DNA of 64,000 nt from a virus (taxonomy: Duplodnaviria; Caudoviricetes): IMG/VR virus record IMGVR_UViG_3300047551_002158, one strand, 5' to 3'. The position numbers were made by a program, and so were the translations under genes. The notes beneath the pieces were generated by a model, which was not told the origin of the DNA, ran no database searches, and worked only from the letters and a program-made list of their open reading frames with translations. This document shows positions 27,607 to 44,123 of the stretch, one piece after another. Within the stretch, counting starts at the first letter, position 1. Each line of letters opens with the position of its first letter.

Positions 27607-27655
27607 TGTGTGTAAGTTATACTTCTTATAAATAATAGTAGTATAACTTACTGAT

Positions 27656-28321
27656 ATGAAAGTAAAGATTTATCTAATTACCAACACAGCAGTCAATCCA
27701 CATATGTATTATGTTGGATTGACTAAAAATGAACTGGATAGAAGATTACAAGAACACATTACTCTTGGAAGGCACGAAGGTAATAAACTTTTGTCTGATG
27801 CTATTATTGAATATGGTAAAAGAAACTTTACTATTGAAGTTATAGAAGAAGTTGATGAGAGTGAAGCAAGAATAAAAGAAGATTATTATATCCGTAAATA
27901 TAAATCTCATTATGTGGATGGGTGTGGATATAATATGAGATATGAAACTTGTAATTATAAAAAACATTATCACGGAGCAAATCAAGAACAGATAGAAGAG
28001 AACATTAAAAATGGAAGAGTGTGGAATTATGGAATAAGTTTTTCTTCACAATCAAAAGAGAAAATGAGAAAAACTAAAAAACATAGATACTCTCTGGGAC
28101 TTTATAAAAAGTTTAATACAAATCACTCACAAGAAACAAAAGAAAAAATTGCTGAAAGTAAAAGAGGACAAAAACTATCACAAGAGCACAGAAAAAATAT
28201 TGCTAAATCTTCTTCTGGTAGAGTTTGGATTTCTAATACTGAATTGAATGAAAGAAAGTTTGTAAAGCAAGATGAGTTGGAAATGTTTTTGGAAAGTGGT
28301 TGGAAGAGAGGTAGGATATAA
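27656..28321 (+). CDS. GIY-YIG homing endonuclease inside the fractured gp41 gene
   Basis: KIYLIT...YYVGLT...RRLQEH; GYN motif; NUMOD3; C-terminal NUMOD1-like tail. Confidence 0.9.
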   Translation: MKVKIYLITNTAVNPHMYYVGLTKNELDRRLQEHITLGRHEGNKLLSDAIIEYGKRNFTIEVIEEVDESEARIKEDYYIRKYKSHYVDGCGYNMRYETCNYKKHYHGANQEQIEENIKNGRVWNYGISFSSQSKEKMRKTKKHRYSLGLYKKFNTNHSQETKEKIAESKRGQKLSQEHRKNIAKSSSGRVWISNTELNERKFVKQDELEMFLESGWKRGRI

Positions 28322-28344
28322 ATACCTAAAAAGTATTATCAAAA

Positions 28345-28803
28345 ATGGACGCACAAGATTTTCGTAGTCTTCAAGAAGCATATATGGAAGTTGTTATGAA
28401 TGAAGCAAAGAAACCTTTTCCATTTGAAAAGGTTTCTAATAAATCAAAGTCCAAAGAAAAACAAAAATTACAATTAAAAAAAGATGTTGAGGGTGGTTTA
28501 ATTTCTCATAAAAGAGCAACTCCATTAATTTCTAAACTTGTTAATCAAAAAGTTAAAATGGGTATGGTTTGGGCAAAAGAAAGAGAAAAGAAAAAAGAAG
28601 ATGATAATTCAAAAAGGTCTTCAACATTCTATAGAAAAGATAAGCATTTATCAAAAATGACTAAAACTCAAAGAGAACAAGTAGATATTTACGACATCAT
28701 CCTTTCACATTTACTTGATGAAGGATATGCTGAAACACCAGAAGCAGCAGAAGCAATTATGGTGAATATGAGTGAAGAGTGGAGACAGAGTATTATTGGT
28801 TGA
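28345..28803 (+). CDS. Constant-ends/variable-core late protein, copy A
   Basis: MDAQDFRSLQEAY...YDIILSHLLDEGYAETPEAAEAIMVNMSEEW; TATAAATA 28317-28324; paralog of 43581-44123. Confidence 0.8.
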   Translation: MDAQDFRSLQEAYMEVVMNEAKKPFPFEKVSNKSKSKEKQKLQLKKDVEGGLISHKRATPLISKLVNQKVKMGMVWAKEREKKKEDDNSKRSSTFYRKDKHLSKMTKTQREQVDIYDIILSHLLDEGYAETPEAAEAIMVNMSEEWRQSIIG

Positions 28804-28836
28804 TTACCAAAATAAAATTCAATCCAACCACTCACC

Positions 28837-28865
28837 TTGATTTTGGTGAGTGGTTTTGTTATAAT
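28837..28865 (+). promoter_or_regulatory. Sigma70-type promoter for the gp41 C-fragment, overlapping a terminator-like hairpin
   Basis: TTGATT-N17-TATAAT; AACCACTCACC/GGTGAGTGGTT inverted repeat. Confidence 0.7.
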
Positions 28866-28884
28866 GTGAGAAGGTAAGAACTCT

Positions 28885-29307
28885 ATGATGCTGAAAAAAA
28901 TTCTAAAAATTGAAGAACTTGATGAAAGAGAAATGATAGATATTGAAGTATCAGGAAATCACTTGTTCTATGCGAATGCTATTCTCACACATAATAGTAG
29001 TTCTGATGTTGAACTTACTGATACTTCTGAATCCTTTGGTCTCCCTGCTACTGCTGATCTTATGTTTGCCCTTATTAGCACTGAAGACTTGGAGGGGCTT
29101 GGTCAGATATTGGTGAAACAACTGAAGAACCGTTATAATGATCCTACCATTCATAAGCGTTTTGTGATTGGTATTGACCGCGCTAAAATGCGTCTTTATG
29201 ATTGCGAACAATCTGCTCAAAATGATATCCTTGACAATGGAAAGGATGAAGAGTATGATTACGAAGAAAAGAAACCTAAAAAATCATTTGAAGGATTTAA
29301 ATTCTAA
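28885..29307 (+). CDS. gp41: Split-intein IntC (37 aa, 28885-28995) fused to the gp41 C-fragment (103 aa)
   Basis: MMLKKILKIEE...LFYANAILTHN then Ser+1 (SSSDV); ESFGLPATAD; KQLKNRY. Confidence 0.95.
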   Translation: MMLKKILKIEELDEREMIDIEVSGNHLFYANAILTHNSSSDVELTDTSESFGLPATADLMFALISTEDLEGLGQILVKQLKNRYNDPTIHKRFVIGIDRAKMRLYDCEQSAQNDILDNGKDEEYDYEEKKPKKSFEGFKF

Positions 29308-29308
29308 T

Positions 29309-29722
29309 ATGACTCAAGTTATTGATACAAACAAATATATTGAATTCGTTCGTCAAACTACAAGTCCTGCGAGCAGTGATTTTGCTCAACTGCTTTCTCG
29401 TCTGACTGAACTTGAAGCAAGTGCTGATGCAGATGTTCCCCGCCTTCTCACTGCTGCTCTTGGTATGAGTGCTGAAGCAGGAGAGTTTACTGAAGTTGTT
29501 AAGAAAATTATTCTTCAGGGCAAACCTTATAATGAAGAGAATGCTTTTCACCTGAAGCGAGAACTTGGAGACATCTGTTGGTATCTGTCTCAAGCATTTA
29601 TGGCACTTGATACTAACTTTGAAGAGATTCTCAAGATGAACTATGAGAAACTGAGTGCTCGTTATCCTGAAGGAACCTTTGATGTTTATCGTTCTGAAAA
29701 TCGTGTGGAGGGAGACCTGTGA
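29309..29722 (+). CDS. mazG: MazG-like nucleotide pyrophosphohydrolase
   Basis: GMSAEAGEF; RELGDICWY; NYEKLSARYP. Confidence 0.92.
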   Translation: MTQVIDTNKYIEFVRQTTSPASSDFAQLLSRLTELEASADADVPRLLTAALGMSAEAGEFTEVVKKIILQGKPYNEENAFHLKRELGDICWYLSQAFMALDTNFEEILKMNYEKLSARYPEGTFDVYRSENRVEGDL

Positions 29723-29904
29723 GTAAAGAAAAACAAGTAACAATTAAAATGGATGCTCGTTCAGCAGCAGCAGTTCGTCAAGTCCTCTTTGATTCTCAAA
29801 AAGGATATACTTATGATGAAGTAAGTGTTCCTCCTCGTATTGCTGATATTCGTGGAGTTATTCAGCAACTTGATGATAGTATTGGTGCTGTTGTTGGTGT
29901 TTGA
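29719..29904 (+). CDS. Small hypothetical protein
   Basis: 61-aa ORF coupled to mazG, followed by a terminator-like hairpin. Confidence 0.65.
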   Translation: MSKEKQVTIKMDARSAAAVRQVLFDSQKGYTYDEVSVPPRIADIRGVIQQLDDSIGAVVGV

Positions 29905-29959
29905 CCCTTCTGGGTCTTTTTTTATAAATAAAATTATTAGAACTTTAAATTTATAAAAA

Positions 29960-31315
29960 ATGGATCCTAAAATTCTGAGAGAAGCAGCTCTTGCATATCA
30001 AGCAGTTTATGACCAAGATCTGCGTCAGGAAATTGAAGAGCAGCAAGACTTTGAGAACTGGGTAAATTCACTTGTAGAAGAAGGTTATGACCTGAGTGAG
30101 TATACCTGGGAAGATATGTATGAAACATATATAACAGAAATTGCCGTTCCTCCGAAAGATCCAGCAGCTGCCCGTGCTCAAAGTGCAGCTGCTGCACAAG
30201 GATTTCGCAATATTGGTAATGCAGTTAGAACAGTAGCAAATCCTATGGGTGCTATTGTTAGAGGTATGCAGGATGCAACTACTCGCTATAGGGCAGCAGG
30301 TCCTCGTGATGTTAAAGGTAGACCATTAAATCAAAAACCAACACAAACTCCAGCAAAACCAACATCATCCTCAACTCAATCTCGTTTTTCTGGAGCAAGA
30401 GACGCTGCAGTTGCAAGAGCAAGACAAATTCAAGGTTCTCCTGTAGTTGGATCAAAACCCTCTACAGGTTCTGCAGCAAGACCTTCTGCAGCACCAGCAG
30501 CAAGACCTTCTGGTGGTTCTTCTGCTCCTGCAGCAAGACCAGCAGCATCCGCACCAACTGCAAAACCATCACCAACCCCATCTGCAGCTGCACCAGCAAA
30601 ACCAACTCCAGCACCTTCAACTCCTGCGGCAAAACCATCTGCGATGGATCAGTGGGCAAAGGCAAATCCAAAACTTGCTGCAGCAAAAGCAGAAAGAGAT
30701 AGAACAAGAGGAACAAGTTCAACAACTAATCCTCAAATGGCAGACTTGAAGAGCAAACTTCCTGCGCCAAAATCGCCATCACCAACTACAACATCAACAG
30801 CATTTGCAAAACCAACTCCAGCATTAGGATCATCTTCATCTGCAGTTCAGTCTGGAGGTTCTGCGGCAGCTTCTAGACCATCAACCAATCAAACTGCAAC
30901 TGCATTTTCTAGTCCTTCTTTAGCAAGGTCATCATCTTCAACACCAGCAGCAAAACCAACTCCTATGAAGAAACCTATGGGTTCTTCAAAACCAGGAAGT
31001 CTTGTTTCTGGTTTTGATTTGTTTGATGTTGTAAAGGGATATTTGATTGATGAGGGATTTGCTGAAACTGAACAGGCAGCAATTGCTATTATGGCAAATA
31101 TGAGTGAAGAGTGGAAACTTGAAATTATTAGTGAAATGAGTCCTACAATGCAGAAACTTACTTCAAGACCATCTGTAAACATTGGTGGAGGTAGTTCATC
31201 GGGTTCAAGACCATTAACAACTTCTTCTGCGGCAAAAAAACCTACTACACAATCTAATAGTGGGTTAACTCCAATGCAGAGATTGCAAAGACCAGCAAGT
31301 GGAACTATCCAATAA
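29960..31315 (+). CDS. Pro/Ala/Ser-rich late protein carrying the same acidic modules as copies A and B
   Basis: LVEEGYDLSEYTWEDM; DLFDVVKGYLIDEGFAETEQAAIAIMANMSEEW; low-complexity core. Confidence 0.75.
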   Translation: MDPKILREAALAYQAVYDQDLRQEIEEQQDFENWVNSLVEEGYDLSEYTWEDMYETYITEIAVPPKDPAAARAQSAAAAQGFRNIGNAVRTVANPMGAIVRGMQDATTRYRAAGPRDVKGRPLNQKPTQTPAKPTSSSTQSRFSGARDAAVARARQIQGSPVVGSKPSTGSAARPSAAPAARPSGGSSAPAARPAASAPTAKPSPTPSAAAPAKPTPAPSTPAAKPSAMDQWAKANPKLAAAKAERDRTRGTSSTTNPQMADLKSKLPAPKSPSPTTTSTAFAKPTPALGSSSSAVQSGGSAAASRPSTNQTATAFSSPSLARSSSSTPAAKPTPMKKPMGSSKPGSLVSGFDLFDVVKGYLIDEGFAETEQAAIAIMANMSEEWKLEIISEMSPTMQKLTSRPSVNIGGGSSSGSRPLTTSSAAKKPTTQSNSGLTPMQRLQRPASGTIQ

Positions 31316-31342
31316 ATAATTACGGAAGGTTGCTCTAACCCC

Positions 31343-31371
31343 TTGACTTTTTAGTTGAGGGGTTTTATAAT
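31343..31371 (+). promoter_or_regulatory. Sigma70-type promoter for the solitary tRNA-Ala
   Basis: TTGACT-N17-TATAAT inside an AACCCC/GGGGTT hairpin. Confidence 0.75.
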
Positions 31372-31381
31372 ATCCGAACTT

Positions 31382-31453
31382 GGGGTGTTCGTATAACGGC
31401 TATTACTCTGGATTTGCATTCCAGCAATAAGGATTCGATTTCCTTACACTCCA
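31382..31453 (+). tRNA. tRNA-Ala(UGC), solitary
   Basis: Acceptor GGGGTGT/ACACTCC with G3:U70; anticodon arm CTGGA-TTTGCAT-TCCAG; T arm AAGGA-TTCGATT-TCCTT. Confidence 0.9.
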
Positions 31454-31490
31454 TTATAAAAAGAATAATAAATACTTGAAAAAAAGTATT

Positions 31491-32645
31491 ATGGCAGTAG
31501 ATTACAATAAGGGGGATGTTTCCGAAGCTATCCTTGCCGCTGCTATTGCTGCAAAATTTAAAAAAAGAATTAATGCTTCGGATTTTAAATCAACCAATAT
31601 TCCAATTAAGGTAGGAAATCTTCCACCAATAACAAAATCAGATGTTGAGGAAATACTTTCATTTTTAGTTAAATCTTTTAGATATTCAACTTCAGTTAGA
31701 GATATTGATAGATTAACAAAAACGACAACAAATATATATGACAACATTCAAGTTAGCGTTAGTATTCCGCAAAAAAGTGCTGAATTCTTAAAAAAGAGGT
31801 CGAATTGGTCCAAGGTTTCTAATATATTTACTTCTGCAATAGCAAAGGTAAATACCGATCCAAGATTAAAAGCAAAGGCATATGGTTTATCTGTAAATAA
31901 AAAAAACGATACTATTATTGTAAGAGCAGTTGGTACAGAAGCACAGACAGCAACTAAAGTTGATATTAGGGTTGAGATTATAAATCAAGGACAAAGATTG
32001 CCCAATAAAGCAAATCAAATATCATTAAAGTATGATGCTCCACAATTTGCCCAATCCGTAGGACTTGAGTTTGAAAATTTTGGAAAAATATTTGATGCTC
32101 TTGGATTGAACAATTATTTAAAATATAATCAGATGTTTTTATCTGAAGTTATGGATGTTTATCCTGATATTATGGGTAAGAAGTTTGATAGTAGAGATGC
32201 TATAAAATCTTCTAATGAAGTTAAAGCATTAAAAAAGGTTGCAAAGGAAGTTTTTGCGACTATTGGAGATCAATTAGAAGATAAATTAACTGGGTCTGGA
32301 AGAGAGCAGTTTAGAAGATCTTTGGCAGCATACTGTAAGGAAAGAGCTACAAAAAATGAAAGCGGAGTTGAATTGGTTAAATTTACTACAAGAGGTGGAT
32401 CAGTAACCCAAACATTTGGTCAGTCATTTTTTGAAAATGTTGCAAATGCTGATTTAAAAGTTCATAAGGATCTGGGTGGGAGTGATCCAAAAATATTAAT
32501 ATATTCCGGAACATCTGCGACAAAAACAAATACTTTAATACAGTTTAGATATAGAACTGATGCAACAGCAAAAGATAAAAATGGTAAATATAAAATTTTA
32601 ATGAGGTCTTATGTTGAATCTGGCGATCTTTTGTACAAATTATAA
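31491..32645 (+). CDS. Hypothetical late protein, possible PD-(D/E)xK-like nuclease
   Basis: NKGDVSEAILA; TKVDIRV...QISLK pattern; late TAAATA box upstream. Confidence 0.5.
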   Translation: MAVDYNKGDVSEAILAAAIAAKFKKRINASDFKSTNIPIKVGNLPPITKSDVEEILSFLVKSFRYSTSVRDIDRLTKTTTNIYDNIQVSVSIPQKSAEFLKKRSNWSKVSNIFTSAIAKVNTDPRLKAKAYGLSVNKKNDTIIVRAVGTEAQTATKVDIRVEIINQGQRLPNKANQISLKYDAPQFAQSVGLEFENFGKIFDALGLNNYLKYNQMFLSEVMDVYPDIMGKKFDSRDAIKSSNEVKALKKVAKEVFATIGDQLEDKLTGSGREQFRRSLAAYCKERATKNESGVELVKFTTRGGSVTQTFGQSFFENVANADLKVHKDLGGSDPKILIYSGTSATKTNTLIQFRYRTDATAKDKNGKYKILMRSYVESGDLLYKL

Positions 32646-32682
32646 ATAACTAAAAGACACTTAAGTGCGATAAGATACATTA

Positions 32683-33975
32683 ATGAAAAGTTTTCTAAAT
32701 TTTCTTACTGAAGCAACGCAGTCGCAAGCAGCAATGCAAGCGAAGAAACTTGGTTTAACTGGAGACGGTCATGGCGGATGGATTGACCGTTCTGGTAAAG
32801 TTATTGCAAGAACAGAAAAAGGAAAACTTAAGTATATTGATGGTCGTCAATCAAAAGGTGCAGAGCAACCAGCAGCACAAGCACCTCAAGCAGCACCCGC
32901 TCCTGCTCCTCAACCAGTTGCAACAGCACAAGCACCTATTCCACAACCCCAAGCAGCACCAGGACAAGCACCAGAGGAGCAACCCGCAGAAGAACTACCA
33001 CCACTCACTGTTGTCTTTGGTCGCTTCAATCCACCAACAGTAGGACACGAAAAACTTCTTAAGTCTGCAAAGAGAATTTCTGCTGGTGGAGATATTAAGA
33101 TTTATCCTTCAAGATCCCAAGATCCAAAGAAAAATCCTTTAGATCCTGATATTAAAGTTTCGTATATGAAAAAGATGTTTCCTGAATTTGAGGAAACTAT
33201 TATTAATGATAAAGATATGAAGACTATCTTTGATGTTCTTGTAACTGCTAATGAAGATGGATATACAAGTGTCAATATTGTAGTTGGTTCGGATCGTCAA
33301 GCAGAATTTGAAAATTTAGCACAAAAGTATAATGGAGATCTTTATTCGTTTGATCAAATTCGTGTAATATCTGCTGGAGTAAGAGATGCTGATGCTGAAG
33401 GTGTGGAAGGAATGTCTGCATCCAAGATGAGAAAAGCAGTTCTTGATGATGACTTTGCATCATTCCGTAGAGGAACTCCAAAGACACTTGATGATGGAGA
33501 AACTCAAGCACTCTTTAATGCAGTTCGCCAAGGAATGGGTGCAAAGAAGTCAAAAGTTAAAAAGGAAAGTTATTCCCTATGGGAGATTGCCCCAAAGTAT
33601 GATATGAGAAATCTTCGTGAGAATTATGTAAGAGGAAAAATTTTTAGAATGGGTGATAAAGTTCAAAATCTCAATACTGGATTGATTGGAGAAGTAATGC
33701 GTAGAGGAACTAATCATCTCATTTGTGTAACTGAAGAAGGTTATATGTTTAAGTCTTGGATTAAGGATTTGATGGAATATACTGAAGTTAAGATGGATAG
33801 TATGTATAGATCTCCAGGAAAACCAAATACTCTTGCGGGAACAACAGGGTATTTGAAGTATGCAATGAAACAAACTCCAGGATCTACTTTAGGAAAAGAA
33901 AATCTTCAAGCAGGTGGATCTTCATTTTTAGACAAATTTATAAATAAGTATAAGAAACAAAAAGTACGTGTTTAA
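32683..33975 (+). CDS. Cytidylyltransferase-like (HxGH) nucleotidyltransferase with a capsid-targeting-like leader
   Basis: FGRFNPPTVGH; VVGSDR; MSASKMR; starts MKSFLNFLTEA. Confidence 0.85.
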   Translation: MKSFLNFLTEATQSQAAMQAKKLGLTGDGHGGWIDRSGKVIARTEKGKLKYIDGRQSKGAEQPAAQAPQAAPAPAPQPVATAQAPIPQPQAAPGQAPEEQPAEELPPLTVVFGRFNPPTVGHEKLLKSAKRISAGGDIKIYPSRSQDPKKNPLDPDIKVSYMKKMFPEFEETIINDKDMKTIFDVLVTANEDGYTSVNIVVGSDRQAEFENLAQKYNGDLYSFDQIRVISAGVRDADAEGVEGMSASKMRKAVLDDDFASFRRGTPKTLDDGETQALFNAVRQGMGAKKSKVKKESYSLWEIAPKYDMRNLRENYVRGKIFRMGDKVQNLNTGLIGEVMRRGTNHLICVTEEGYMFKSWIKDLMEYTEVKMDSMYRSPGKPNTLAGTTGYLKYAMKQTPGSTLGKENLQAGGSSFLDKFINKYKKQKVRV

Positions 33976-33980
33976 TTAAG

Positions 33981-35702
33981 ATGTCTATCAATCCTCTAAA
34001 TGATATTTCCAGAGTATATCTGGAGCAGGTTGTCGAATCTTCTCATCTTGAGACTGATATGAAAACGCGTCGTAAGAATAATGAAAAAGCAGTTAAAGAT
34101 ATGAAAAAAACAAAAGCATATCAAGATATGGTTGATGCTGCCAGAAAGAAGTTTGATGAGGCATTAGATCCAGTAGGGCAAGAAGATGCTGATGTTGATA
34201 ATGATGGTAAGAAAAATACAAAGTCCGATAAGTATCTCCTAAAGCGTAGAGCAGCAATATCAAAAGCAATTACTCATAAAGAGGCATTAGATCCTGTTGG
34301 TAAGGAAGATGATGATATTGATAATGATGGAATTCCAAATACTAAATCTGATAAGTATCTAAAGCATCGTAGAAAAGTTCGCGGAAAAGTTATTGCTAAA
34401 GAAGGTTTCTCAAACTGGAGAGAGGATCTGATTGAAGTTACCAGCAAACTTGAAGGAAAGGATGGTAAGGAACCAAAAATTGTAGAAAAATCTGTTGATA
34501 ACAAAATAAATATCAATCCAAATCTTGATCTTGGTGAAGCAGTAGAAAATCTTGGTGGAACTCTGCTTGAAATGGTTGAGATTGAAAACTTTGAAGGAGT
34601 TCTTGATGAATTTACTGAATCTGAAATCTTCTTACTTTCTGATCAATTAATTGAACAAGTAGTGGAAGAATTTTTCTATGAGTGTATTGAAGAAGGTTAT
34701 GATATTTTAGAAGTAGAAAATAGACTTATAGAGTCCCTTGAAATTTCTTGTTCTATTCTGACAGAAGAAGAAAGTATTAAAGAAAGTAGACTTGAAAAAA
34801 TTAAAGGTGCTGTAAAGAGAGTTGGTAAAGCACTTGCTCATGGAGTTGGATATGCTGCTGGTGCTGCTGTAAGAGGTATAAAAGCAGCAGGTAGAGAGGT
34901 GAAATCTGGATATGAGAGAGGTAGAAGTGGTTCTTCTCAGGGCAGAACTCAAACTTCATCTTCATCCACATCTGATGGTGGAGATTCTGGTGAAAAGAAA
35001 CCTGGACTTCTTTCTAGAATTGGATCTAAGTTAAAGAGAGGTCTTGCAAAGACTGCAAGAGCAGTTTCCAGAGGAGCAAGAAATGTTGCACGCAGAGTTG
35101 AAGGTGGCGAGAAAAAAGCAACTCCCAAAGTAGCACCTAAAAAAGCAGAAAAACCAGAAGATCCTTGGTCAGGTAGTGCAACAACTCCACCAAAAGCAAA
35201 AGCAAAAACCAAAAAGGCAGCAGCACCAAAAGCAAAATCACCTACCGCAGCAAAACCAAAAGCAAAAAGAAAGTCTAAGTTAGATGATTTACTTGCTAGT
35301 GTAAGAAGCGAAGAAGCACAACTTGATGAAATTGCTCCATTAGTTGCTGGTGGTCTTGCTATAGGTGGAGCAGCTCTTGCTGGAAAGGCTATTGCAGATA
35401 AAATGGAGCAGAGTAGACAGAAAGTAACTTCACCATCTACTGCTAAACCAACTCCATCTTCATCATTATCAGATAAAATGAGAGCAAGAAATCAGCAAAT
35501 GAGAGAATTGATGAATTCTTATGAATTGGAAGGAAATCAAATTGATGAAAAAACACTAAGTGATGCTGAAACGAAAAAGAAGGAAGAAATTGTAAAGTCA
35601 ATGAAAGATAAAGCATCAGACTTTGAAAAGAGATATCCTGGTCGTGGTAAAGAAGTAATGTATGCTACTGCCACTAAGATGGCTAAAAAAATTGCAAAAT
35701 AA
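33981..35702 (+). CDS. Large modular late protein with alternating acidic and basic blocks
   Basis: Two 41-aa EALDPVGxEDxDxDNDG repeats; Lys/Ala-rich segment; many L/I-x-E motifs. Confidence 0.7.
   Translation: MSINPLNDISRVYLEQVVESSHLETDMKTRRKNNEKAVKDMKKTKAYQDMVDAARKKFDEALDPVGQEDADVDNDGKKNTKSDKYLLKRRAAISKAITHKEALDPVGKEDDDIDNDGIPNTKSDKYLKHRRKVRGKVIAKEGFSNWREDLIEVTSKLEGKDGKEPKIVEKSVDNKININPNLDLGEAVENLGGTLLEMVEIENFEGVLDEFTESEIFLLSDQLIEQVVEEFFYECIEEGYDILEVENRLIESLEISCSILTEEESIKESRLEKIKGAVKRVGKALAHGVGYAAGAAVRGIKAAGREVKSGYERGRSGSSQGRTQTSSSSTSDGGDSGEKKPGLLSRIGSKLKRGLAKTARAVSRGARNVARRVEGGEKKATPKVAPKKAEKPEDPWSGSATTPPKAKAKTKKAAAPKAKSPTAAKPKAKRKSKLDDLLASVRSEEAQLDEIAPLVAGGLAIGGAALAGKAIADKMEQSRQKVTSPSTAKPTPSSSLSDKMRARNQQMRELMNSYELEGNQIDEKTLSDAETKKKEEIVKSMKDKASDFEKRYPGRGKEVMYATATKMAKKIAK
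34158..34403 (+). repeat. Tandem 123-nt (41-aa) duplication with DxDNDG motif
   Basis: EALDPVGQEDADVDNDGKKNTKSDKYL / EALDPVGKEDDDIDNDGIPNTKSDKYL. Confidence 0.85.
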
Positions 35703-35738
35703 AAAATCTAAATAGTTAAAATCATATAGGAGGTTATT

Positions 35739-35930
35739 ATGCTAACAGGTTCTCTATTATTTGCAGTTAAAAGCGGTGCTCTAAGTGCTGTTAATGTTCA
35801 ACTCATTCTTGGCATTCTTCTTGCTGTTTCTGAAGTTCTTGGTGCCGATCCAAGAGTTAAGGCAAATGGAATTATTTCATTTATCTTAGTCCAGGCACAA
35901 AATCTTCTGAAAGCAAAAAAAGAAGGTTGA
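35739..35930 (+). CDS. Small membrane protein
   Basis: GGAGG RBS; hydrophobic helices; basic C-terminus. Confidence 0.65.
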   Translation: MLTGSLLFAVKSGALSAVNVQLILGILLAVSEVLGADPRVKANGIISFILVQAQNLLKAKKEG

Positions 35931-36024
35931 GATAAAATAAAATAAGTTTTATAGAGACTGAGTTTTATCAGTCTCTATTTTTTATAAATAATTTTTAGCA
36001 AATAACTTTTACGGAAGAAAGAAC

Positions 36025-36777
36025 ATGGCACTCTGGGGAAATAATGATGCTAAAGGATCTGGCGGTACAGTATCTTTAAATTATGAGACTCTTGTTGTAA
36101 CTGGATCAGGAACTACCTTTGGTCAAGTTGGAGCAGCAGCAACTGGTGATGTAATTAGATTTGGCGCGGCATTCGGTGTGCATTATGGTGATGCCGTAAT
36201 TGTTGGAATTGCAAGTACTACAGTGCTCTCAATTGCATCGACTGCTGGACTAAGTGGAGATGCAATTTCTGGAGTTCAATTCCAGATTAGCGAATCTCCA
36301 AAATTTGCTGTTCTTGACAGCCATTGGAATCAGTCAACTGGTTCTGTAACAGAGACTTATAACTTCTTACAGACTACTGCAACTTACACTGCAGGTGTTG
36401 GAACAGATAAAATTTTGGTTGGAAGTGTTGTTGGAGTAAAAACTGGAGATACTCTAACCGGAGTTAATACGACTGGCGTTGTTGCTTCTATTGGAACAAC
36501 TTCTGTTTCTCTTGCATCCACTATTGGATCTGCTATTACTGCGGGAGATATTATTAAATTCTCAAGAGTAACTGGTGGACATGAATCCGTTGTGGTTGGA
36601 GTCAGTAGTATTTCTGTTGGAGCTGCTGCATCCACTAAGTTTGAATTAACTCACTCTGGGTGGGTTGGTATTATGACATACACAGATAGTGAAGGTAATC
36701 TGAGAGTTAAGAGTGAAGTTCTTGTTGCAATGTCTGGAATCACGACAGGAAATACTGATTATCCACCTGCACTATAA
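36025..36777 (+). CDS. Probable virion structural protein
   Basis: MALWG start; Gly/Thr/Val-rich; HSGWVG...RVKSEVLVAMS; late promoter. Confidence 0.7.
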   Translation: MALWGNNDAKGSGGTVSLNYETLVVTGSGTTFGQVGAAATGDVIRFGAAFGVHYGDAVIVGIASTTVLSIASTAGLSGDAISGVQFQISESPKFAVLDSHWNQSTGSVTETYNFLQTTATYTAGVGTDKILVGSVVGVKTGDTLTGVNTTGVVASIGTTSVSLASTIGSAITAGDIIKFSRVTGGHESVVVGVSSISVGAAASTKFELTHSGWVGIMTYTDSEGNLRVKSEVLVAMSGITTGNTDYPPAL

Positions 36778-36780
36778 TGT

Positions 36781-37173
36781 ATGATCTTTAATGAATTGAA
36801 TGAGGATAATTTCCTCATGTTTGCTATTAAACATTATGAAAATCCTCAGGCAGTTACTAAAGAAGACTTTGAGAAGGATTTAAATCACTTTAAGTATATT
36901 AAAAGATTATTGAAAAGATATAAAAGAGAAGGTGAATTAAAAACTCATCTTCTCTTGAATCATTTTATTATTCTTTATAATATTTTTGGAGAAGCAACAA
37001 CTCCAATGTTATTTTTTAAAATTGAAAAAGATCTTTGGTCCTCTGTAAAATCATTTATAATATTTCTTGGTAGATTTCCAGAATATCCTAAAACATTAAT
37101 ACACGATATTCCTGTTGATATAAATTGCCTATCCGAACTCTATAAAATCTACAATGGAAAAGAAGAAGATTGA
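36781..37173 (+). CDS. Conserved T4-like hypothetical protein
   Basis: EDFEKDLNHFKYIKRLL; LNHFIILYNIFG. Confidence 0.75.
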   Translation: MIFNELNEDNFLMFAIKHYENPQAVTKEDFEKDLNHFKYIKRLLKRYKREGELKTHLLLNHFIILYNIFGEATTPMLFFKIEKDLWSSVKSFIIFLGRFPEYPKTLIHDIPVDINCLSELYKIYNGKEED

Positions 37174-37387
37174 TAAAGTCATTGAAGCATTTCGTAATTA
37201 TATTAATTTAAAAGAAGAGGGAATGGTCACGGGAAGTTCTTCTGGTTCTCCTGGGTTTAGTGGATCTTCTGATCCGAAAGGTCCAACCGCAGGATTTGAT
37301 CCTGTAATGGGATTGGGAAAAAGAAAAGGTCCGCAGATAAAACTTCCACCTGGTTCCCGTAGAAGGTGGATGAAACCAAAAAACTAA
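37154..37387 (+). CDS. Small hypothetical protein
   Basis: LKEE motif; GPTAGFDPV. Confidence 0.65.
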   Translation: MEKKKIDKVIEAFRNYINLKEEGMVTGSSSGSPGFSGSSDPKGPTAGFDPVMGLGKRKGPQIKLPPGSRRRWMKPKN

Positions 37388-37452
37388 ATAATATTAAAAC
37401 TACTTGAGTTATTTGTTTCCAGTAGTGTAAGAAATAATAACTCACACGGAAA

Positions 37453-37857
37453 ATGTTTAATTCAAATACTTCTGCTGATACTAAAATTGCTGTATTAGAA
37501 GAGCGTCTATCTTCTTATGAACTTATGTTAAAAAAGATAGATGAAGCAATTCAAATTATGGGGAAGACGAGTCAAAATATTAGCAAGATGCTTGCCGTTC
37601 ACGAAGAAAGAATAGAGCAGTGTCACAAAGCTGATGATTATGTTAGCAGACTGATTGAAGAATTGAAAATTGAGAATAAAGATTCGCACGAAGCAGTGGC
37701 AGAAAGAATTGAAAAAGTTGAAAATAAATTGGAAGAATTTGTAAAATTTCGTTGGATAATAGTTGGAGTTTTTGCAGTTATATCTTTTGGACTATCGCAA
37801 TCACACGTAGTTGTTGATTTATTAACTCCAGATACTCAGCAACAAGTAATAAAATAA
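37453..37857 (+). CDS. Coiled-coil protein with a C-terminal transmembrane segment
   Basis: Heptad pattern; FRWIIVGVFAVISFGL. Confidence 0.7.
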   Translation: MFNSNTSADTKIAVLEERLSSYELMLKKIDEAIQIMGKTSQNISKMLAVHEERIEQCHKADDYVSRLIEELKIENKDSHEAVAERIEKVENKLEEFVKFRWIIVGVFAVISFGLSQSHVVVDLLTPDTQQQVIK

Positions 37858-38027
37858 ATAATTGAGTGTTGGCACAGGATGCCAATGAAAACTAAAAATC
37901 AAGCAACACTCTACTCTCTTCAGAGAATTACAAATTCGGTCGTAAAATGGACAGGGATTATGACCGCATTGTGTCTTGACAAAACGCGATAGACTGGTAG
38001 AATAAGTACACTCATTAAGGTTTGGTT

Positions 38028-39023
38028 ATGGATTTTGTTGATGTTAAATACATCAATTTGATTTCTGGAAGATTTCATAAGTTCAAAAAAATAAAACATA
38101 ATCTTTATAATTTTCGTTGCCCAATCTGTGGAGATTCGCAAAAGAATAAAAATAAGGCAAGGGGATATCTCTATCAAGTAAAAAACAATACAAACTTTAA
38201 GTGTCATAATTGTGGTATCAATATATCTTTTAATAACTTTTTAAAACAAATTGATATTACGATTCATAAGCAATATACCTTTGAAAAATTTAAAGAAGGT
38301 CATAGTGGTAAAAACTTTACTGCAGAAGAACCTCAGTTTAATTTTCAGAAACCAGACTTTTTCACAAAACGTGAAAATTCGGAAAATGTGAAAAAGTTGG
38401 GTTTACCGAAAGCGTTAACAAATCCTAACGCAAAAAAGTATCTGGAAAGTAGAAAATTAAATCCAGATAACTATTATTACACCGAAAAATTTAAAGAGTG
38501 GACTAATTCTCTTCGACCAACATTCGACAATACAAATCAAGATGAACCAAGGATTATTATTCCTTTGTTTTATCAAAATAAGTTAGTCGGATTTCAGGGA
38601 AGAGCACTTGGTCCCAGTAAGGTAAAGTACATTACTATAATGCTTGATGATGACGCACCAAAAATTTATGGTCTTGATGAAGTCAAAAAAAGTGAAACTG
38701 TCTACATCACAGAAGGTCCCTTTGACTCAACATTCATTCGCAACGCGATTGCTCTTTGTGGAGCTGATGGCGATCTTGATAAGTGGAATATTGGCAGGCG
38801 TGTTTGGATTTATGATAACGAACCACGTAATGCAGAAATCACCAACAGGATCGCAAAGCGTATTGATGAAGGAGAACAAGTTGTAATTTGGCCTTCTACA
38901 ATATCCGAAAAGGATATTAATGATATGGTTTTATCTGGACTGAATGTTCAAGATGTGATAGAATCAAATACTTACTCTGGTTTAGAAGCAAAACTTAAAT
39001 TTACTACCTGGAAGAAAATATGA
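38028..39023 (+). CDS. gp61: DNA primase (T4 gp61)
   Basis: CPICGDS and CHNCG zinc finger; TEGPFDS; YDNE TOPRIM; KDIND. Confidence 0.97.
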   Translation: MDFVDVKYINLISGRFHKFKKIKHNLYNFRCPICGDSQKNKNKARGYLYQVKNNTNFKCHNCGINISFNNFLKQIDITIHKQYTFEKFKEGHSGKNFTAEEPQFNFQKPDFFTKRENSENVKKLGLPKALTNPNAKKYLESRKLNPDNYYYTEKFKEWTNSLRPTFDNTNQDEPRIIIPLFYQNKLVGFQGRALGPSKVKYITIMLDDDAPKIYGLDEVKKSETVYITEGPFDSTFIRNAIALCGADGDLDKWNIGRRVWIYDNEPRNAEITNRIAKRIDEGEQVVIWPSTISEKDINDMVLSGLNVQDVIESNTYSGLEAKLKFTTWKKI

Positions 39024-41317
39024 GCAACGGTACAAAAGTTAAAAAGCGTGATGGTCGAATTGAGTCTCTTGACCTGGAAAAGATGCACTTGATGGTTGAA
39101 GAGGCGTGTAAGGGTCTTGCAGGCGTCTCTGCGAGTCAAGTTGAGATGACATCTGGTATTCAGTTTTATGATGGTATCACCACTGCAGAGATTCAGGAGA
39201 TTCTGATTCGATCTGCTTCTGACCTGATCGATCTTGATCACCCTAATTATCAGTTTGTTGCTGCCCGTCTGCTTCTTTTTGCAGTTCGTAAGCAACTTTA
39301 TGGAAAGATGAAAGAACTTCCTCATCTTGAGCAGCACATTTATAACTGTGTTAATCAGGAAGTTTATGATAATGATATTTACAGCAAGTACTCAAAGGAA
39401 GAGATTGATAAGGCAAACTCTTTTATTGATCACGATAGAGATTATCTCTTTACTTACGCTGGACTTCGCCAGGTTGTTGATAAGTATTTGGTTCAGGATC
39501 GCAGTTCAGGTGGAGTATATGAAACTCCGCAGTTCATGTATATGATGATTGCTCTGACTATCTTTGCAGAGTATCCAAAAGAAACAAGAATGTCATATGT
39601 CAAGAGGTATTATGACGCAATCTCCAAACACAAAATCAACATCCCTACCCCCATTATGGCAGGCGTTAGGACACCACTTAGACAATTCGCTAGCTGTGTT
39701 CTTGTTGATGTTGATGACACCCTCGATAGCATCTTTAGTTCTGATATGGCTATTGGCAGATACGTTGCACAAAGGGCGGGAATCGGTATCAACGCAGGTC
39801 GCATCAGGGGTATCAACAGCAAAATCAGAGGTGGAGAAGTTCAACATACAGGTGTTGTCCCTTTCCTCAAAAAGTTTGAAGCAACTGTCCGATGCTGCAC
39901 TCAGAATGGCATCCGTGGTGGATCAGCAACTGTCCACTTCCCAATCTGGCACCAAGAAATAGAAGACATTCTTGTTCTTAAAAACAACAAGGGAACGGAA
40001 GATAATCGTGTCCGTAAACTTGATTATTCTATCCAAATTAGTAAGTTGTTTTATGAAAGATTTATTCAAGACGGTGAGATCACGCTTTTCTCTCCACATG
40101 ATGTACCTGGACTTTATGATTCTTTCGGACTCCCTGAGTTTGACGATCTCTATGTTTCGTATGAAAAAGATTCGTCCATTCCGAAAAAAACTATTAAAGC
40201 ACAAGAACTCATCCTTAACCTTCTTAAAGAACGTGCGGAAACAGGTCGTATCTACCTTATGAATATTGACCATTGCAATTCTCACTCTTCATTTAAGGAT
40301 AAAGTTAATATGAGCAATCTCTGTCAAGAGATTACTCTTCCTACTGATCCTATTCAGCATATTGATGATACTCATGGAGAAATTGCTCTGTGTATTCTTT
40401 CTGCCATTAACGTGGGCAAAGTTAAATCTGATGAAGAACTTGAGGATCTTTGTGATCTTTCTGTTCGTGGTTTGGATGAGTTGATCGACTATCAGAAATA
40501 CCCCGTAGAGGCGGCAGAAATCGCCACGAAGGCACGTCGTTCTCTTGGCATAGGATTTATTGGTCTTGCTCACTATTTGGCAAAACTTGGTTTTGATTAT
40601 GATTCTCAAGAGGCGTGGGATGCTGTTCATGGACTTTCAGAATCATTCCAATATTATCTTTTGAAAGCATCTAATCAACTTGCTAAAGAAAAGGGATATT
40701 GTGAATACTTTGGTCGTACCAAGTATGCTGATGGTATTCTTCCAATTGACACTTACAAAAAAGATGTAGACGAAATTTCATCTATCACACTTCAACATGA
40801 TTGGGAAAATCTTAGAGCATCCATCTTGGCTCACGGTCTCAGGCACTCAACATTGTCCGCACAGATGCCATCGGAGAGTAGTTCCGTTGTGTCAAATGCG
40901 ACAAATGGAATCGAACCTCCCCGTGGTTTCCTGTCCGTTAAGAAATCGAAGAAGGGCCCTCTCAAGCAGATTGTCCCTCAATATCAAACTCTTAAGAACA
41001 ACTATACGCTTCTTTGGGATATGGAGTCCAATCGTGGTTACATTAATATTGTTGCTTTGATGCAGAAGTTCTTTGATCAAGCGATTTCTGGAAACTGGTC
41101 TTATAATCCAGAAAATTATCAAGATAATGAAGTTCCTGTATCAGTAATGGCAAATGACTTTTTGACTACATACAAGTACGGGTGGAAAACTTCTTATTAC
41201 CAAAACACTTATGATATTAAGACTGATGAGGTAGTAGAAGAAAAACCCAATCTTCAAGATTTGTTAAGTGAGTTAAGTTCAGTAGAGGAGGGAGAGTGTG
41301 AATCCTGTGCAGTTTAA
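39020..41317 (+). CDS. nrdA: Class Ia ribonucleotide reductase alpha subunit
   Basis: ATP cone VKKRDG; ASCVL; SNLCQEI; AQMPSESSS; YY pair; ends ECESCAV. Confidence 0.98.
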   Translation: MSNGTKVKKRDGRIESLDLEKMHLMVEEACKGLAGVSASQVEMTSGIQFYDGITTAEIQEILIRSASDLIDLDHPNYQFVAARLLLFAVRKQLYGKMKELPHLEQHIYNCVNQEVYDNDIYSKYSKEEIDKANSFIDHDRDYLFTYAGLRQVVDKYLVQDRSSGGVYETPQFMYMMIALTIFAEYPKETRMSYVKRYYDAISKHKINIPTPIMAGVRTPLRQFASCVLVDVDDTLDSIFSSDMAIGRYVAQRAGIGINAGRIRGINSKIRGGEVQHTGVVPFLKKFEATVRCCTQNGIRGGSATVHFPIWHQEIEDILVLKNNKGTEDNRVRKLDYSIQISKLFYERFIQDGEITLFSPHDVPGLYDSFGLPEFDDLYVSYEKDSSIPKKTIKAQELILNLLKERAETGRIYLMNIDHCNSHSSFKDKVNMSNLCQEITLPTDPIQHIDDTHGEIALCILSAINVGKVKSDEELEDLCDLSVRGLDELIDYQKYPVEAAEIATKARRSLGIGFIGLAHYLAKLGFDYDSQEAWDAVHGLSESFQYYLLKASNQLAKEKGYCEYFGRTKYADGILPIDTYKKDVDEISSITLQHDWENLRASILAHGLRHSTLSAQMPSESSSVVSNATNGIEPPRGFLSVKKSKKGPLKQIVPQYQTLKNNYTLLWDMESNRGYINIVALMQKFFDQAISGNWSYNPENYQDNEVPVSVMANDFLTTYKYGWKTSYYQNTYDIKTDEVVEEKPNLQDLLSELSSVEEGECESCAV

Positions 41318-42488
41318 GATTTCTTCAACGGAAGAACCCCAAACAAATATTAAAGGAATGACCGTTTTTAACACTGAAAAAGTTGATACCAAAAAACAAC
41401 CAATGTTTTTTGGAAAACCTCTTGGAGTTCAAAGGTATGATTCATACAAATATCCAATCTTCGACAAACTGACTACTCAACAACTTGGATACTTCTGGAG
41501 ACCCGAAGAGGTGTCTCTCCAGAAGGATCGTGGCGATTATCAGACACTTCGCCCAGAGCAAAAGCATATCTATACTTCTAATCTGAAGTATCAGATTATG
41601 CTTGATTCTGTTCAGGGTCGTGGTCCTGGCATGGCATTTATTCCATACTGTTCACTTCCTGAACTGGAAGCGTGTATGGAAGTGTGGGGATTTATGGAAA
41701 TGATTCACTCACGCTCATACACATACATCATCAAAAACGTTTATTCAGATCCATCTGAGGTGTTTGATACTATCATTGGAGATGAGCGTATTCTGGAACG
41801 TGCTAAGAGTGTTACAGAGTCTTATGATGACTTTATTCAATCAGCACAACAATATGGTGTGTCCGATACTTGGATGCATAGACTTGAGGGAGTATCATAC
41901 GCAAAGGAATCACTCAACGATGTCAAACGAAAACTGTACAGAGCAGTCGCAAACGTTAATATTCTTGAAGGTATTCGCTTCTACGTTAGTTTTGCTTGTA
42001 GTTTCGCCTTTGGTGAACTTAAGCTTATGGAAGGATCCGCTAAAATCATTAGTCTCATCGCAAGAGACGAAAACCAACACTTAGCACTTACTCAGAACAT
42101 TCTGAATAAGTGGAAAGAAGGTGATGATCCTGAAATGAAGCAGATTGCAAAAGAAGAAGAAGAGTGGGTCTATAAAATGTTTGATCGTGCTGTAAACGAA
42201 GAGAAGAAATGGGCAGATTACCTGTTCAAAGATGGCAGCATGATTGGACTGAATGATAAACTTCTTCAGCAATATGTTGAATGGATTGCTAACCGTAGAC
42301 TGAAAGCAATAGGACTAAAACCACAGTATGATATTTCAGCAAACAATAATCCACTTCCTTGGACACAACACTGGATTTCTTCCAAAGGTCTTCAGGTTGC
42401 TCCGCAGCAAACTCAAGTGCAGTCTTATGTGGTTGGTGGAATAAAACAAGATGTCAAAAAAGACACATTTAGTGGTTTTAAACTTTAA
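41298..42488 (+). CDS. nrdB: Class Ia ribonucleotide reductase beta subunit with an atypical Gln-rich C-terminal tail
   Basis: FWRPEE; EMIHSRSY; ILEGIRFY; RDENQH; tail QVAPQQTQVQSY. Confidence 0.97.
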   Translation: MNPVQFKISSTEEPQTNIKGMTVFNTEKVDTKKQPMFFGKPLGVQRYDSYKYPIFDKLTTQQLGYFWRPEEVSLQKDRGDYQTLRPEQKHIYTSNLKYQIMLDSVQGRGPGMAFIPYCSLPELEACMEVWGFMEMIHSRSYTYIIKNVYSDPSEVFDTIIGDERILERAKSVTESYDDFIQSAQQYGVSDTWMHRLEGVSYAKESLNDVKRKLYRAVANVNILEGIRFYVSFACSFAFGELKLMEGSAKIISLIARDENQHLALTQNILNKWKEGDDPEMKQIAKEEEEWVYKMFDRAVNEEKKWADYLFKDGSMIGLNDKLLQQYVEWIANRRLKAIGLKPQYDISANNNPLPWTQHWISSKGLQVAPQQTQVQSYVVGGIKQDVKKDTFSGFKL

Positions 42489-42548
42489 TTGACTTTAAGA
42501 CTGAAATAGTGTATTATATAAATAATAATAGGTAAGTTCAGTCTTAAA

Positions 42549-43163
42549 ATGAATAATTATATTCTTTACTATTACTTAAGGGAGGACTTTAGTTCTCCCT
42601 TTTATGTTGGTTATGGAAGACCAAGAAGAATTAATTCCAGACACTCCAGGAGAAATGGTGCTGAAATATTACCACCAAGAGAAAGAAGATGGATTGTAAA
42701 ATCTGGATTAACTAAAGAAGAAGCAATAGAACTTGAGATAAAACATATAGCACTCTGGAAAAGAGAATGTGATGGTGGGGTTTTGTTAAATCAAAATCTT
42801 GGTGGTGAAGGAAAACCTGGAGGACAGAGAACTAAAGGATTTAGTGGAAGGAAACATAGTGAAGAAGCAAAGAAAAGAATAAGTGAAAAAGCTGCTGGCA
42901 AGAATAATCCAAGATATGGTGTTAAATTATCACAAGAGACAAGAAATAAGATAAGTCAAAACAGAACACCAAAGTTTGGTAAAGATAATCCAAACTCTAA
43001 AACTTGGAAGATTGTTTCTCCAGAAAATAAAGAGTACATTATTACTGGAGCATTAAAAGAGTTTTGTAAGTCTCAAAATATTTCATATGCAACGATGCAC
43101 GCAGCAATTCTTTACGATAGAAAAGGGCCAAGAAGAAATGGATGGAGTATTGAGAAAGTTTAG
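42549..43163 (+). CDS. Free-standing GIY-YIG-like homing endonuclease after nrdB
   Basis: YILYYYL...FYVGYG; LLNQNLGGEG; HSEEAKKRIS NUMOD3; TATAAATA 42517-42524. Confidence 0.85.
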   Translation: MNNYILYYYLREDFSSPFYVGYGRPRRINSRHSRRNGAEILPPRERRWIVKSGLTKEEAIELEIKHIALWKRECDGGVLLNQNLGGEGKPGGQRTKGFSGRKHSEEAKKRISEKAAGKNNPRYGVKLSQETRNKISQNRTPKFGKDNPNSKTWKIVSPENKEYIITGALKEFCKSQNISYATMHAAILYDRKGPRRNGWSIEKV

Positions 43164-43551
43164 AATATCACTACCAGAAGATGAGTGTGTGATAAAACTT
43201 CAGGAGTATTGTAAGTTCTCTCATACTTTGTTAAAAGTTCCTGTAGTTTCTAAACCTTTATGTGCCGACGCAAACTGCCACAATAATGTTAATCATTATG
43301 TGAATACTTATGGTGGAGAAAAGATAAGTGGATATTATCTAATCACCGATGTTGATGATGAAACTTATGGATGTGCGATATATCATAGTATTTGGAAAAA
43401 TACTTACGGAGATTTGATAGATATAACTCCATTTGATGATGGTAGAGAATATAATATGTTCTCTGTGCTAGATGCTATAGATTATTACTCTGGAGTTGCT
43501 TATGATGGAAAAGTTTATAGAATATTAGAACCAGGACTTAATGTTGTTTAA
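43138..43551 (+). CDS. Cys-His-Asp triad protein (papain/transglutaminase-like), candidate Gln deamidase
   Basis: NCHNNV (C47), HSIW (H83), DITP (D95); overlaps the endonuclease 3' end by 26 nt. Confidence 0.55.
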   Translation: MDGVLRKFRISLPEDECVIKLQEYCKFSHTLLKVPVVSKPLCADANCHNNVNHYVNTYGGEKISGYYLITDVDDETYGCAIYHSIWKNTYGDLIDITPFDDGREYNMFSVLDAIDYYSGVAYDGKVYRILEPGLNVV

Positions 43552-43580
43552 ATTATAAATAACTAAAAAGTATTTGTAAA

Positions 43581-44123
43581 ATGAACGCACAAGATTTTCG
43601 TAGTCTTCAAGAAGCATATTTGGAAGTTTATAATGACTTGGATGAAGGTGCTTCGGAAGACGTTGCTGCTAGATCCGAAAAACTTGCAAAACAAAGAAAG
43701 GGGCAAACACCTCAAAGAAAAGCAATGTATCAGGGACTTGCACTTAAAGCAAGAATTCGTGCTTCTGGAGGAAATCCTGGAGATAAATCACAGGGACATC
43801 CTTTAAGGAGAGCATCTAATAGACCTATTCACCCCCACGATAGTAAGTATGGTAGATCTGGTTTAACTCAATCTAAAAGAGATGAAAGAAGAGATATAGA
43901 TGCCGCAACTCATGGTGAGTATAGTGATGGTCCTGGAACTGTAACAAAAAATCCAAAAAAACTTCGTAAGCAAAAAGCACTTGGAGAACTTGGAGAACAA
44001 GCAGACCTCTACGACATCATTCTCTCACACCTTCTTGATGAAGGATATGCCGAAACACCAGAAGCAGCAGAAGTCATTATGGTTAATATGAGTGAGGAGT
44101 GGAGAAACTCCATTCTTGGTTAA
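43581..44123 (+). CDS. Constant-ends/variable-core late protein, copy B
   Basis: MNAQDFRSLQEAY...YDIILSHLLDEGYAETPEAAEVIMVNMSEEW; TATAAATA 43554-43561. Confidence 0.8.
   Translation: MNAQDFRSLQEAYLEVYNDLDEGASEDVAARSEKLAKQRKGQTPQRKAMYQGLALKARIRASGGNPGDKSQGHPLRRASNRPIHPHDSKYGRSGLTQSKRDERRDIDAATHGEYSDGPGTVTKNPKKLRKQKALGELGEQADLYDIILSHLLDEGYAETPEAAEVIMVNMSEEWRNSILG

Follow-up and report, generated by a model that had tools for sequence, protein, structure and literature searches.

Conserved gene ends as homology arms for the exchange of basic cores in a cyanomyovirus family of putative head cargo

How do two genes of one phage come to have nearly identical ends and unrelated middles, and what do such genes encode? 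This question is raised by the open reading frames (ORFs) A (28345-28803, 152 amino acids (aa)) and B (43581-44123, 180 aa) of the IMG/VR virus record IMGVR_UViG_3300047551_002158. The stretch of DNA that we analysed, 64,000 nucleotides (nt) long and hereafter called the window, has a G+C content of 36.5% and is the replication region of a T4-like cyanomyovirus. Its closest cultured relatives are the Synechococcus phages S-SCSM1, Bellamy, and S-SM2, with about 77-79% nt identity across conserved genes. In the present study, we show that the ends of A and B are homology arms, between which cores are swapped across insertion sites and across phages. We further consider it fairly probable that A and B belong to a cassette-built cyanomyovirus family whose arms exchange cores and whose products are head cargo cut by a gp21-type protease.

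Each of the two ORFs is headed by the late promoter TATAAATA, followed by (C/A)CTAAAAAGTATT and a leader of 19-20 nt. In common they have this promoter and leader, an N-terminal module (N-module) of about 20 aa, and a C-terminal module (C-module) of about 42 aa. Within the first 48 coding nt there are two differences, both nonsynonymous; over the last 129 nt the identity is 83.7% (21 mismatches), and the differing codons comprise 10 synonymous and 5 nonsynonymous ones. Between the modules, profiles built from the relatives of each core gave an hhalign probability of 0.1% (E 0.52), and the full-length BLASTP alignment of A and B, at 40% identity, is convincing at the ends alone. Both cores are rich in Lys and Arg. 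A first-pass annotation, made from the letters of the window, had described this placement, the late promoter context, the similar starts and ends, and the unrelated basic middles, and all of these were borne out. It had named A and B as carriers; a hidden Markov model of the C-terminal 42 aa found a third copy in the window, inside a 451-aa gene (Table 1) that bears both modules and had been overlooked.

The family is very large and previously undescribed in Pfam and the literature. Searches with A and with B each gave about 3000 metagenomic proteins, and a profile of the two ends, as the annotation had advised, collected 3192 representatives from a library clustered at 50% identity (2301 at E<=1e-10). 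Chance resemblance of A and B is excluded because thousands of metagenomic proteins bear both ends. An alignment of 34 members has 33 invariant columns, all within the ends, with no alignment between them. Strict greedy clustering placed the cores of 172 distinct simple members in at least 52 clusters; most pairs of clusters are unrelated, and a few have common sub-modules. Architectures comprise N-core-C (211), N-core-C with a basic tail (88), and forms with two C-modules. Contigs with the family carry 1-5 copies each; copy number, like the head genes considered below, was read from related contigs and not from the window's own genome. No Pfam family matches A or B, PHROGs has no named family for either, and the ESM Atlas clusters for the family are unnamed and viral. 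The family's motif strings gave no paper in a text search of the literature.

In 80 IMG/VR loci, the conserved DNA starts exactly at ATAAATA and stops at the stop codon, and both flanks are site-specific. Cyanomyovirus genomes have at least nine insertion sites, including the position after nrdB, the gp41 split-intein gap, a position near psbA/psbD, another between peptidase-like and lysozyme genes, another beside a porin-like gene, and several others. Nine relatives have nine unrelated cores at the nrdB site, at least six unrelated cores occur in the gp41 gap, and a single core was found at up to five sites. Alignments of syntenic loci, which are 80-90% identical, cover the flanking genes and the endonuclease gene and then break at the core. 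At the site of B, they break at 43628 and restart at 43989-44009; at the site of A, they break at 28396-28408 and restart at 28663-28679, and syntenic relatives have unrelated cores in the position of core A.

Cores from different sites are often 97-100% identical at the nt level, and the similarity is limited to the region from the promoter to the stop codon. In eight pairs with the same core at different sites, the divergence was 1.0% in the core, 10.6% in the 5' arm, and 7.8% in the 3' arm (Fisher p 6e-36); this test and the motif-avoidance test described below draw on the best 150 of roughly 3000 representatives. Core A of the window itself has a 96.3% identical copy in a different phage, at a different site, and the arms of these two genes are 85-87% identical. 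Movement of whole genes predicts equal divergence of arms and core, whereas the observed values are unequal; thus, the cores were recently transferred into resident genes by recombination, with crossovers inside the arms. The promoter with the N-module (about 85 nt) and the C-module (about 130 nt) are therefore homology arms, and comparative genomics upholds the annotation's idea that the ends are recombination arms for core exchange.

The synonymous codon diversity of the arms is 0.10 and 0.22, two- to four-fold lower than the 0.40 expected from amino-acid-matched columns of core genes in the same loci (P<1e-4). In the C-module, C-ending codons are used consistently, and in gp41 gaps of the HNH type the arms are 94-96% identical and gp41 is 72-80% identical. 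When core sharing was compared with flank identity, the same core was present in 33 of 33 pairs with flanks at least 97% identical and in 4 of 17 pairs with flanks 85-90% identical; the sample had no pairs with flanks 90-97% identical. The former count means that turnover is fast relative to species divergence, and the core swaps that the annotation had hoped to see among near-identical genomes did not appear.

Homing endonuclease genes accompany many members. A and B both immediately adjoin GIY-YIG genes, in agreement with the annotation, and throughout the family 32 of 58 distinct genes (55%) have an endonuclease gene (GIY-YIG or HNH) directly next to them, versus 71 of 1600 other genes (odds ratio 26, p 1e-25). 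The neighbouring endonucleases form four clusters, two of GIY-YIG and two of HNH type. Both orders of endonuclease gene and cassette occur, and the same sites are found with and without an endonuclease gene. Double-strand breaks made by these neighbours probably stimulate the exchange. We rejected the notion that endonuclease gene and cassette always travel as one unit, since both orders exist and the similarity of same-core pairs ends at the stop codon.

As to the products, the positions of putative protease sites are informative. T4 gp21 cleaves after L/I-x-E (PMC9026906). L9, Q10, E11, A12, and Y13 are invariant in the N-module, with LQEA in 34 of 34 aligned members; the module is a short N-terminal peptide with L/I-x-E and a following small residue, as in T4 internal proteins. 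The junction of N-module and core is usually L/M-x-E followed by G or A, and LLDE/G (the slash marks the putative cut) is invariant in the C-module. In C-modules that continue into more sequence, I-x-E is present at a fixed position in 157 of 188 cases, and the same position is the exact C-terminus of 283 tail-less proteins. The annotation had placed the module borders at Glu motifs, which is right in part: LDE/G and LGE/Q match L/I-x-E, but MNE/A has Met at P3 and QRE/Q does not fit.

Within the cores, the motif is avoided. [LI]xE was seen once against 16.9 expected in the 52 cluster representatives and 3 times against 57.8 in the 172 distinct cores, and the control patterns [LI]xD, Ex[LI], [LI]E, and [LI]xxE were at expectation. 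In 156 independent segments, the depletion at P3 affected L, V, I, and M but spared F, Y, and W, and at P1 it was limited to Glu; among all 400 i,i+2 residue pairs, LxE was depleted most strongly. The basic tails, like the cores, are nearly devoid of aliphatic-x-Glu. No such depletion was found in the replication proteins or endonucleases of the window, and the gp22 scaffold homologues of family-bearing phages are enriched twofold in the motif (z about +4). In T4 itself (NC_000866), the sole L/I-x-E of IPI, IPII, and IPIII is the removal site of the targeting peptide, and the mature parts have none versus 2.7 expected.

All 311 cores examined are cationic (median +12), as had been noticed for the two middles; the modules have net charges of -4 and -9, so that whole proteins are near neutral. 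The cyanophage gp22 homologues have net charges of -58 to -64. A gp21-type protease gene (PF03420), with an acidic gp22-like gene adjacent, is present in three of four family-bearing contigs and in S-SCSM1; these genes lie outside the window. Acidic, site-rich modules around basic, site-free segments are as expected of proteins that cross a prohead with a gp21-like protease and of which the basic part remains. This pattern suggests that the small family proteins are packed in the head and trimmed by the head protease.

The late promoter and the 451-aa gene also bear on this point. TATAAATA was found 14 times in the window versus 4.5 expected. It stands about 30 nt 5' of A, B, the 451-aa gene, a nicotinamide mononucleotide adenylyltransferase (NMNAT)-like gene, genes for proteins of 573 and 250 aa, and five endonuclease genes, and several genes preceded by it are homologues of S-SCSM1 proteins detected in virions. 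The 451-aa protein is a long paralogue with an N-module-like start in register, a Pro/Ala/Ser-rich basic core, a C-module at residues 348-392, and a tail. It is the positional homologue of S-SCSM1 gp089, which has been detected by mass spectrometry in CsCl-purified virions and matches the family profile at both ends. The phrog_3708 profile matches A at E 7.8e-6 and B at E 9.6e-7 (C-module only), and the 451-aa gene at E 1.3e-17 over residues 28-394. The conserved mazG/NMNAT-like position is held by the 451-aa gene and not by A, in the gp41 gap, or B, after nrdB.

We propose the following explanation. A cassette starts with a late promoter and its leader; the protein that it encodes has a hyperdiverse basic core between an acidic N-module and an acidic C-module of three helices, and may carry further basic tails. 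Through recombination in the arms, cores pass between family genes at many sites and between phages, and the neighbouring homing endonucleases probably make the double-strand breaks that feed this exchange. The proteins would be made late and enter the prohead core, where the gp21 homologue would cut after aliphatic-x-Glu sites inside the acidic modules or at their borders; among the putative cuts, those conserved best are LQE/A, the N/core junction, LLDE/G, and the end of SI-x-E before tails. The protease-resistant basic core would remain in the head with the DNA and would probably be ejected along with it, and the delivered cores could act as DNA counter-ions or anti-defence effectors. The role of 'injected effectors', proposed in the annotation, is a guess. 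A more far-reaching version, in which a fixed frame, thousands of swappable basic cores, and breaks from endonucleases form a population-wide cassette exchange for capsid-delivered proteins, aimed at injected anti-defence effectors, appears to us possible but doubtful; in function, it would be a phage counterpart of antigenic variation or integron-like diversification.

Several observations weigh against the proposed explanation. The small N-core-C members have neither been detected in virions nor observed to be cleaved, and the proteomic support comes from the paralogue because the cultured phages in the searched collection carry diverged module-bearing proteins only. The border of core and C-module often has no canonical site (QRE/Q in A), and the nearest universal site, LLDE/G, sits within a predicted C-module helix. 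Codon bias of highly expressed late genes may partly explain the low synonymous diversity of the arms. The adjacent endonuclease genes are dissimilar in at least one same-core pair, and in the L043/L022 pair they were not co-transferred. Finally, with one and the same core in every pair with near-identical flanks, rapid exchange within populations is unsupported.

Cores could be exchanged and the products still be late cytoplasmic proteins, such as nucleoid or DNA binders, cationic lysis helpers, or intracellular anti-defence proteins, with modules for oligomerisation or regulation and an avoidance of aliphatic-x-Glu that arises from another protease or a structural rule. The missing direct virion evidence for small members is in keeping with such a role, as are the cationic helical or disordered cores, which resemble many DNA- or membrane-binding peptides, and a fold search without a capsid-related match. 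We nevertheless regard it as unlikely, since the avoided motif agrees with the T4 prohead-protease motif in its register, its orientation, and its specificity at P1, and the same motif is enriched in the scaffold of the same phages and fixed at the module borders. Moreover, a paralogue with both modules is in virions, and the family has its late promoters in common with virion-protein genes.

The cassettes might instead be selfish, riding along with free-standing homing endonucleases or serving them as landing pads; homing and co-conversion would spread them, their ends would be kept as targets or substrates, and the phage would gain little. More than half of the family genes do abut an endonuclease gene from one of four clusters, sites occur with and without such a gene, and the arms are conserved at the nucleotide level. 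However, 45% of the family genes lack an endonuclease gene next to them, the protein sequence of the C-module is still conserved in long paralogues, at identities as low as about 50%, and the change between A and B is mostly synonymous; in addition, a cultured phage has the syntenic long paralogue in its virions. The universal positive charge of the cores and their avoidance of one specific tripeptide class indicate selection on the product, and we consider the selfish origin quite improbable. That A and B are ordinary paralogues with faster-diverging middles is hardly credible: the full-length alignment that might suggest it is carried by the ends, the core profiles are unrelated, near-identical cores lie between more diverged arms, and synteny breaks at the module borders. 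The idea that the cores are diverged homologues is refuted by these unrelated profiles together with the pairs whose cores are more similar than their arms.

T4-like cyanophages were previously believed to be without counterparts of the T4 internal proteins. The family, together with a targeting-peptide pattern in the NMNAT-like protein (see below), suggests that cyanophages possess a capsid-targeting and processing system. If so, the family would comprise thousands of candidates for proteins that abundant aquatic phages deliver into picocyanobacteria. The arm-mediated exchange of cores is an unusually clean natural case of modular gene-content diversification, and its link to endonucleases offers a testable mechanism. 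Protease-site avoidance could be used on other phages as a sequence-only sign of head-internal cargo, and the constant frame could serve as a tool to package foreign proteins in cyanophage heads.

The features of both cassettes and their surroundings are shown in Table 1. Cassette A is part of a block (27340-28993) that is inserted relative to the intact gp41 of S-SM2 and S-SCSM1 and that contains the N-intein half, the GIY-YIG gene, the cassette, the terminator, the sigma-70-like promoter, and the C-intein half. The stop codon of the upstream endonuclease gene falls within the promoter box of the cassette. In two relatives (L059 and L068), the gp41 gap is occupied by a cassette and an HNH gene on the opposite strand. 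Cassette B is located 3' of nrdB, a GIY-YIG gene, and a 154-aa ORF. This GIY-YIG gene is a member of the endonuclease cluster that most often adjoins family genes, and the 154-aa ORF is co-linear with it and the cassette in three relatives (L016, L044, and L031). Core B forms its own sub-family, with 50-60% identity in many metagenomic proteins. In the case of A, the AlphaFold model is all-helical, with a three-helix C-module (pLDDT, the predicted local distance difference test score, 74-87). Foldseek with this model gave no PDB match; its matches in BFVD were cyanophage proteins sharing the module, none of them capsid-related.

Table 1. Positions of cassettes A and B, the long paralogue, and neighbouring features in the window
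Feature	Position	Strand	Remarks
gp41 helicase N-terminal part and N-terminal intein half	26275..27606	+	'fractured gene'
GIY-YIG homing endonuclease gene	27656..28321	+	in gp41 split-intein gap, directly 5' of cassette A
Cassette A, 5' arm, non-coding	28317..28344	+	late promoter TATAAATA (28317-28324) and 20-nt leader
ORF A, N-module	28345..28404	+	20 aa, net charge -4; L9-Q10-E11-A12-Y13 (putative site LQE/A), junction MNE/A
Core A	28405..28674	+	about 90 aa, basic, helix-predicted, without aliphatic-x-Glu
ORF A, C-module and stop codon	28675..28803	+	42 aa, net charge -9, three short predicted helices, invariant LLDE/G
Terminator hairpin after cassette A	28826..28855	+	site-specific; overlaps next promoter
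Sigma-70-like promoter for gp41 C-terminal half	28837-28865	+	overlaps terminator hairpin
C-terminal intein half and gp41 helicase C-terminal part	28885..29307	+	context
Long paralogue (phrog_3708)	29960..31315	+	451 aa; own TATAAATA at 29923-29930
GIY-YIG/NUMOD3 homing endonuclease gene	42549..43163	+	3' of nrdB
154-aa ORF, function unassigned	43087..43551	+	between endonuclease gene and cassette B
Cassette B, 5' arm, non-coding	43554..43580	+	TATAAATA (43554-43561) and 19-nt leader
ORF B, N-module	43581..43646	+	putative sites LQE/A and LDE/G
Core B	43647..43994	+	basic; 3' end LGE-LGE
ORF B, C-module and stop codon	43995..44123	+	conserved end

The window has five free-standing GIY-YIG genes in 64 kb, namely the two in Table 1 and those at 10781-11344, 21567-22145, and 45957-46607. 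Each has an exact TATAAATA about 30 nt upstream, and only two adjoin a family cassette. The ORF 44455-44919 contains a GIY-YIG-like motif. In six other loci (L023, L043, L046, L050, L038, and L041), the leader of a downstream endonuclease gene begins a few nt past the family stop codon and contains an inverted repeat across the terminator and TATAAATA (..TTGTTTGTGGTTAT.. / ..ATAACCACAAACA..), which is reminiscent of the translational hairpins of fractured-gene endonucleases.

Some members show peculiarities of their modules and cores. P0188, P0144, P0037, P0045, and P0018 have partial or complete internal duplications of the C-module (two YDIILSHLLDE starts; repeated DEGYAET..MS.EW), which look like scars of unequal recombination within arms. 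The RyR domain (PF02026) matched neither A and B nor the 34 aligned members, even at E<=5, and an RyR-like identity of A, B, or the C-module is thus unsupported. One core type, AVHQGW...PEKK...LPDDEKEKDR (P0247 residues 79-130; also P0048 and P0243), matched PF02026 at 18.3 bits, below the cut-off of 27.4; owing to this sub-threshold match, some cores may be small folded domains rather than plain basic peptides. The Pfam search of members gave no core with an assignable function.

Other proteins of these phages show similar motifs near their starts. The gp22 homologues of S-SCSM1 and three IMG/VR contigs (L084-L087) start with MSRGDLQEM, with L-x-E at residues 6-8, and the gp21 homologues of the same four start with MKLI(R/T)EE, with I-x-E at residues 4-6; the latter echoes the LIE site near the N-terminus of T4 gp21 (PMC9026906). 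The NMNAT-like (cytidyltransferase) gene at 32683-33975, with TATAAATA at 32641-32648, encodes a protein that starts with MKSFLNFLTEA. Its S-SCSM1 homologue starts with MKSFLQFLKEA, and T4 IPII and IPIII start with MKTYQEFIAEA, including the L/I-x-E/A site. Homologues of this protein have been detected repeatedly in cyanophage virions (PMC9602691), and its start suggests that the enzyme is packaged via a T4-like targeting peptide. The 573-aa protein (33981-35702) is a homologue of an S-SCSM1 virion protein, to which it also corresponds in position. It has 13 L/I-x-E sites, 11 of them in an acidic region (residues 150-266) and none in the basic flanks, and its N-terminal part has two DPVG..ED.D.DNDG..NTKSDKYL repeats.

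With regard to the source of the phage, near-identical DNA was found mainly in freshwater and estuarine metagenomes among public runs. For the stretch 27300-29400, public runs contained up to 0.92 of the sampled words, and the top run may be the source sample. The phage probably originates from a habitat other than the open ocean.

Among known systems, the family most resembles the hypervariable internal-protein loci of T-even phages, whose products have a capsid targeting sequence (PMC3012670, PMC9026906). Like T4 IPI, IPII, and IPIII, family members are small basic proteins with a conserved N-terminal peptide ending in L/I-x-E/A, and the mature parts, putative in the family, are highly diverse among related phages and have no further protease site. 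T4 Alt is cut at both of its ends. The resemblance is one of pattern only, as neither Pfam nor PHROG gave homology to the three proteins. Unlike them, the family has a second, far larger constant module at the C-terminal side, many poly-modular members, a canonical late promoter, and at least nine dispersed sites instead of one or two loci. Its exchange via coding arms is demonstrable. S-SCSM1 gp089 (phrog_3708) likewise combines an N-module-like start with a C-module and a late promoter; however, it is a single-copy gene whose position is fixed, its core is long and of low complexity, and its modules are only about 50% identical to the family consensus, whereas A and B are mobile and have nearly invariant ends.

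Free-standing endonucleases are known for intronless homing with co-converted flanks, for trans-homing by mobE (PMC2790892), and for 'fractured genes' (PMC2677866). The loci studied here similarly have late-promoter GIY-YIG or HNH genes between conserved genes or in the gp41 split-intein gap, and the gap that holds A is the position described for the gp41-1 'fractured gene' (PMC2677866). That description mentions no passenger gene; here, in contrast, one gene family is the favoured neighbour of several endonuclease families. In the promoter-early stem-loop (PeSL) cassettes of T4-type phages, short conserved flanks of variable genes are the recombination substrates for modular shuffling (PMC2839356, PMC4122927). 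PeSLs are non-coding, intergenic early-promoter/terminator motifs; the family cassettes do not have this non-coding repeat of early promoter and stem-loop, and their downstream flank is site-specific. Their arms consist instead of a late promoter and protein-coding modules under protein-level selection, and the unit exchanged, unlike that of PeSL shuffling, is the interior of a gene.

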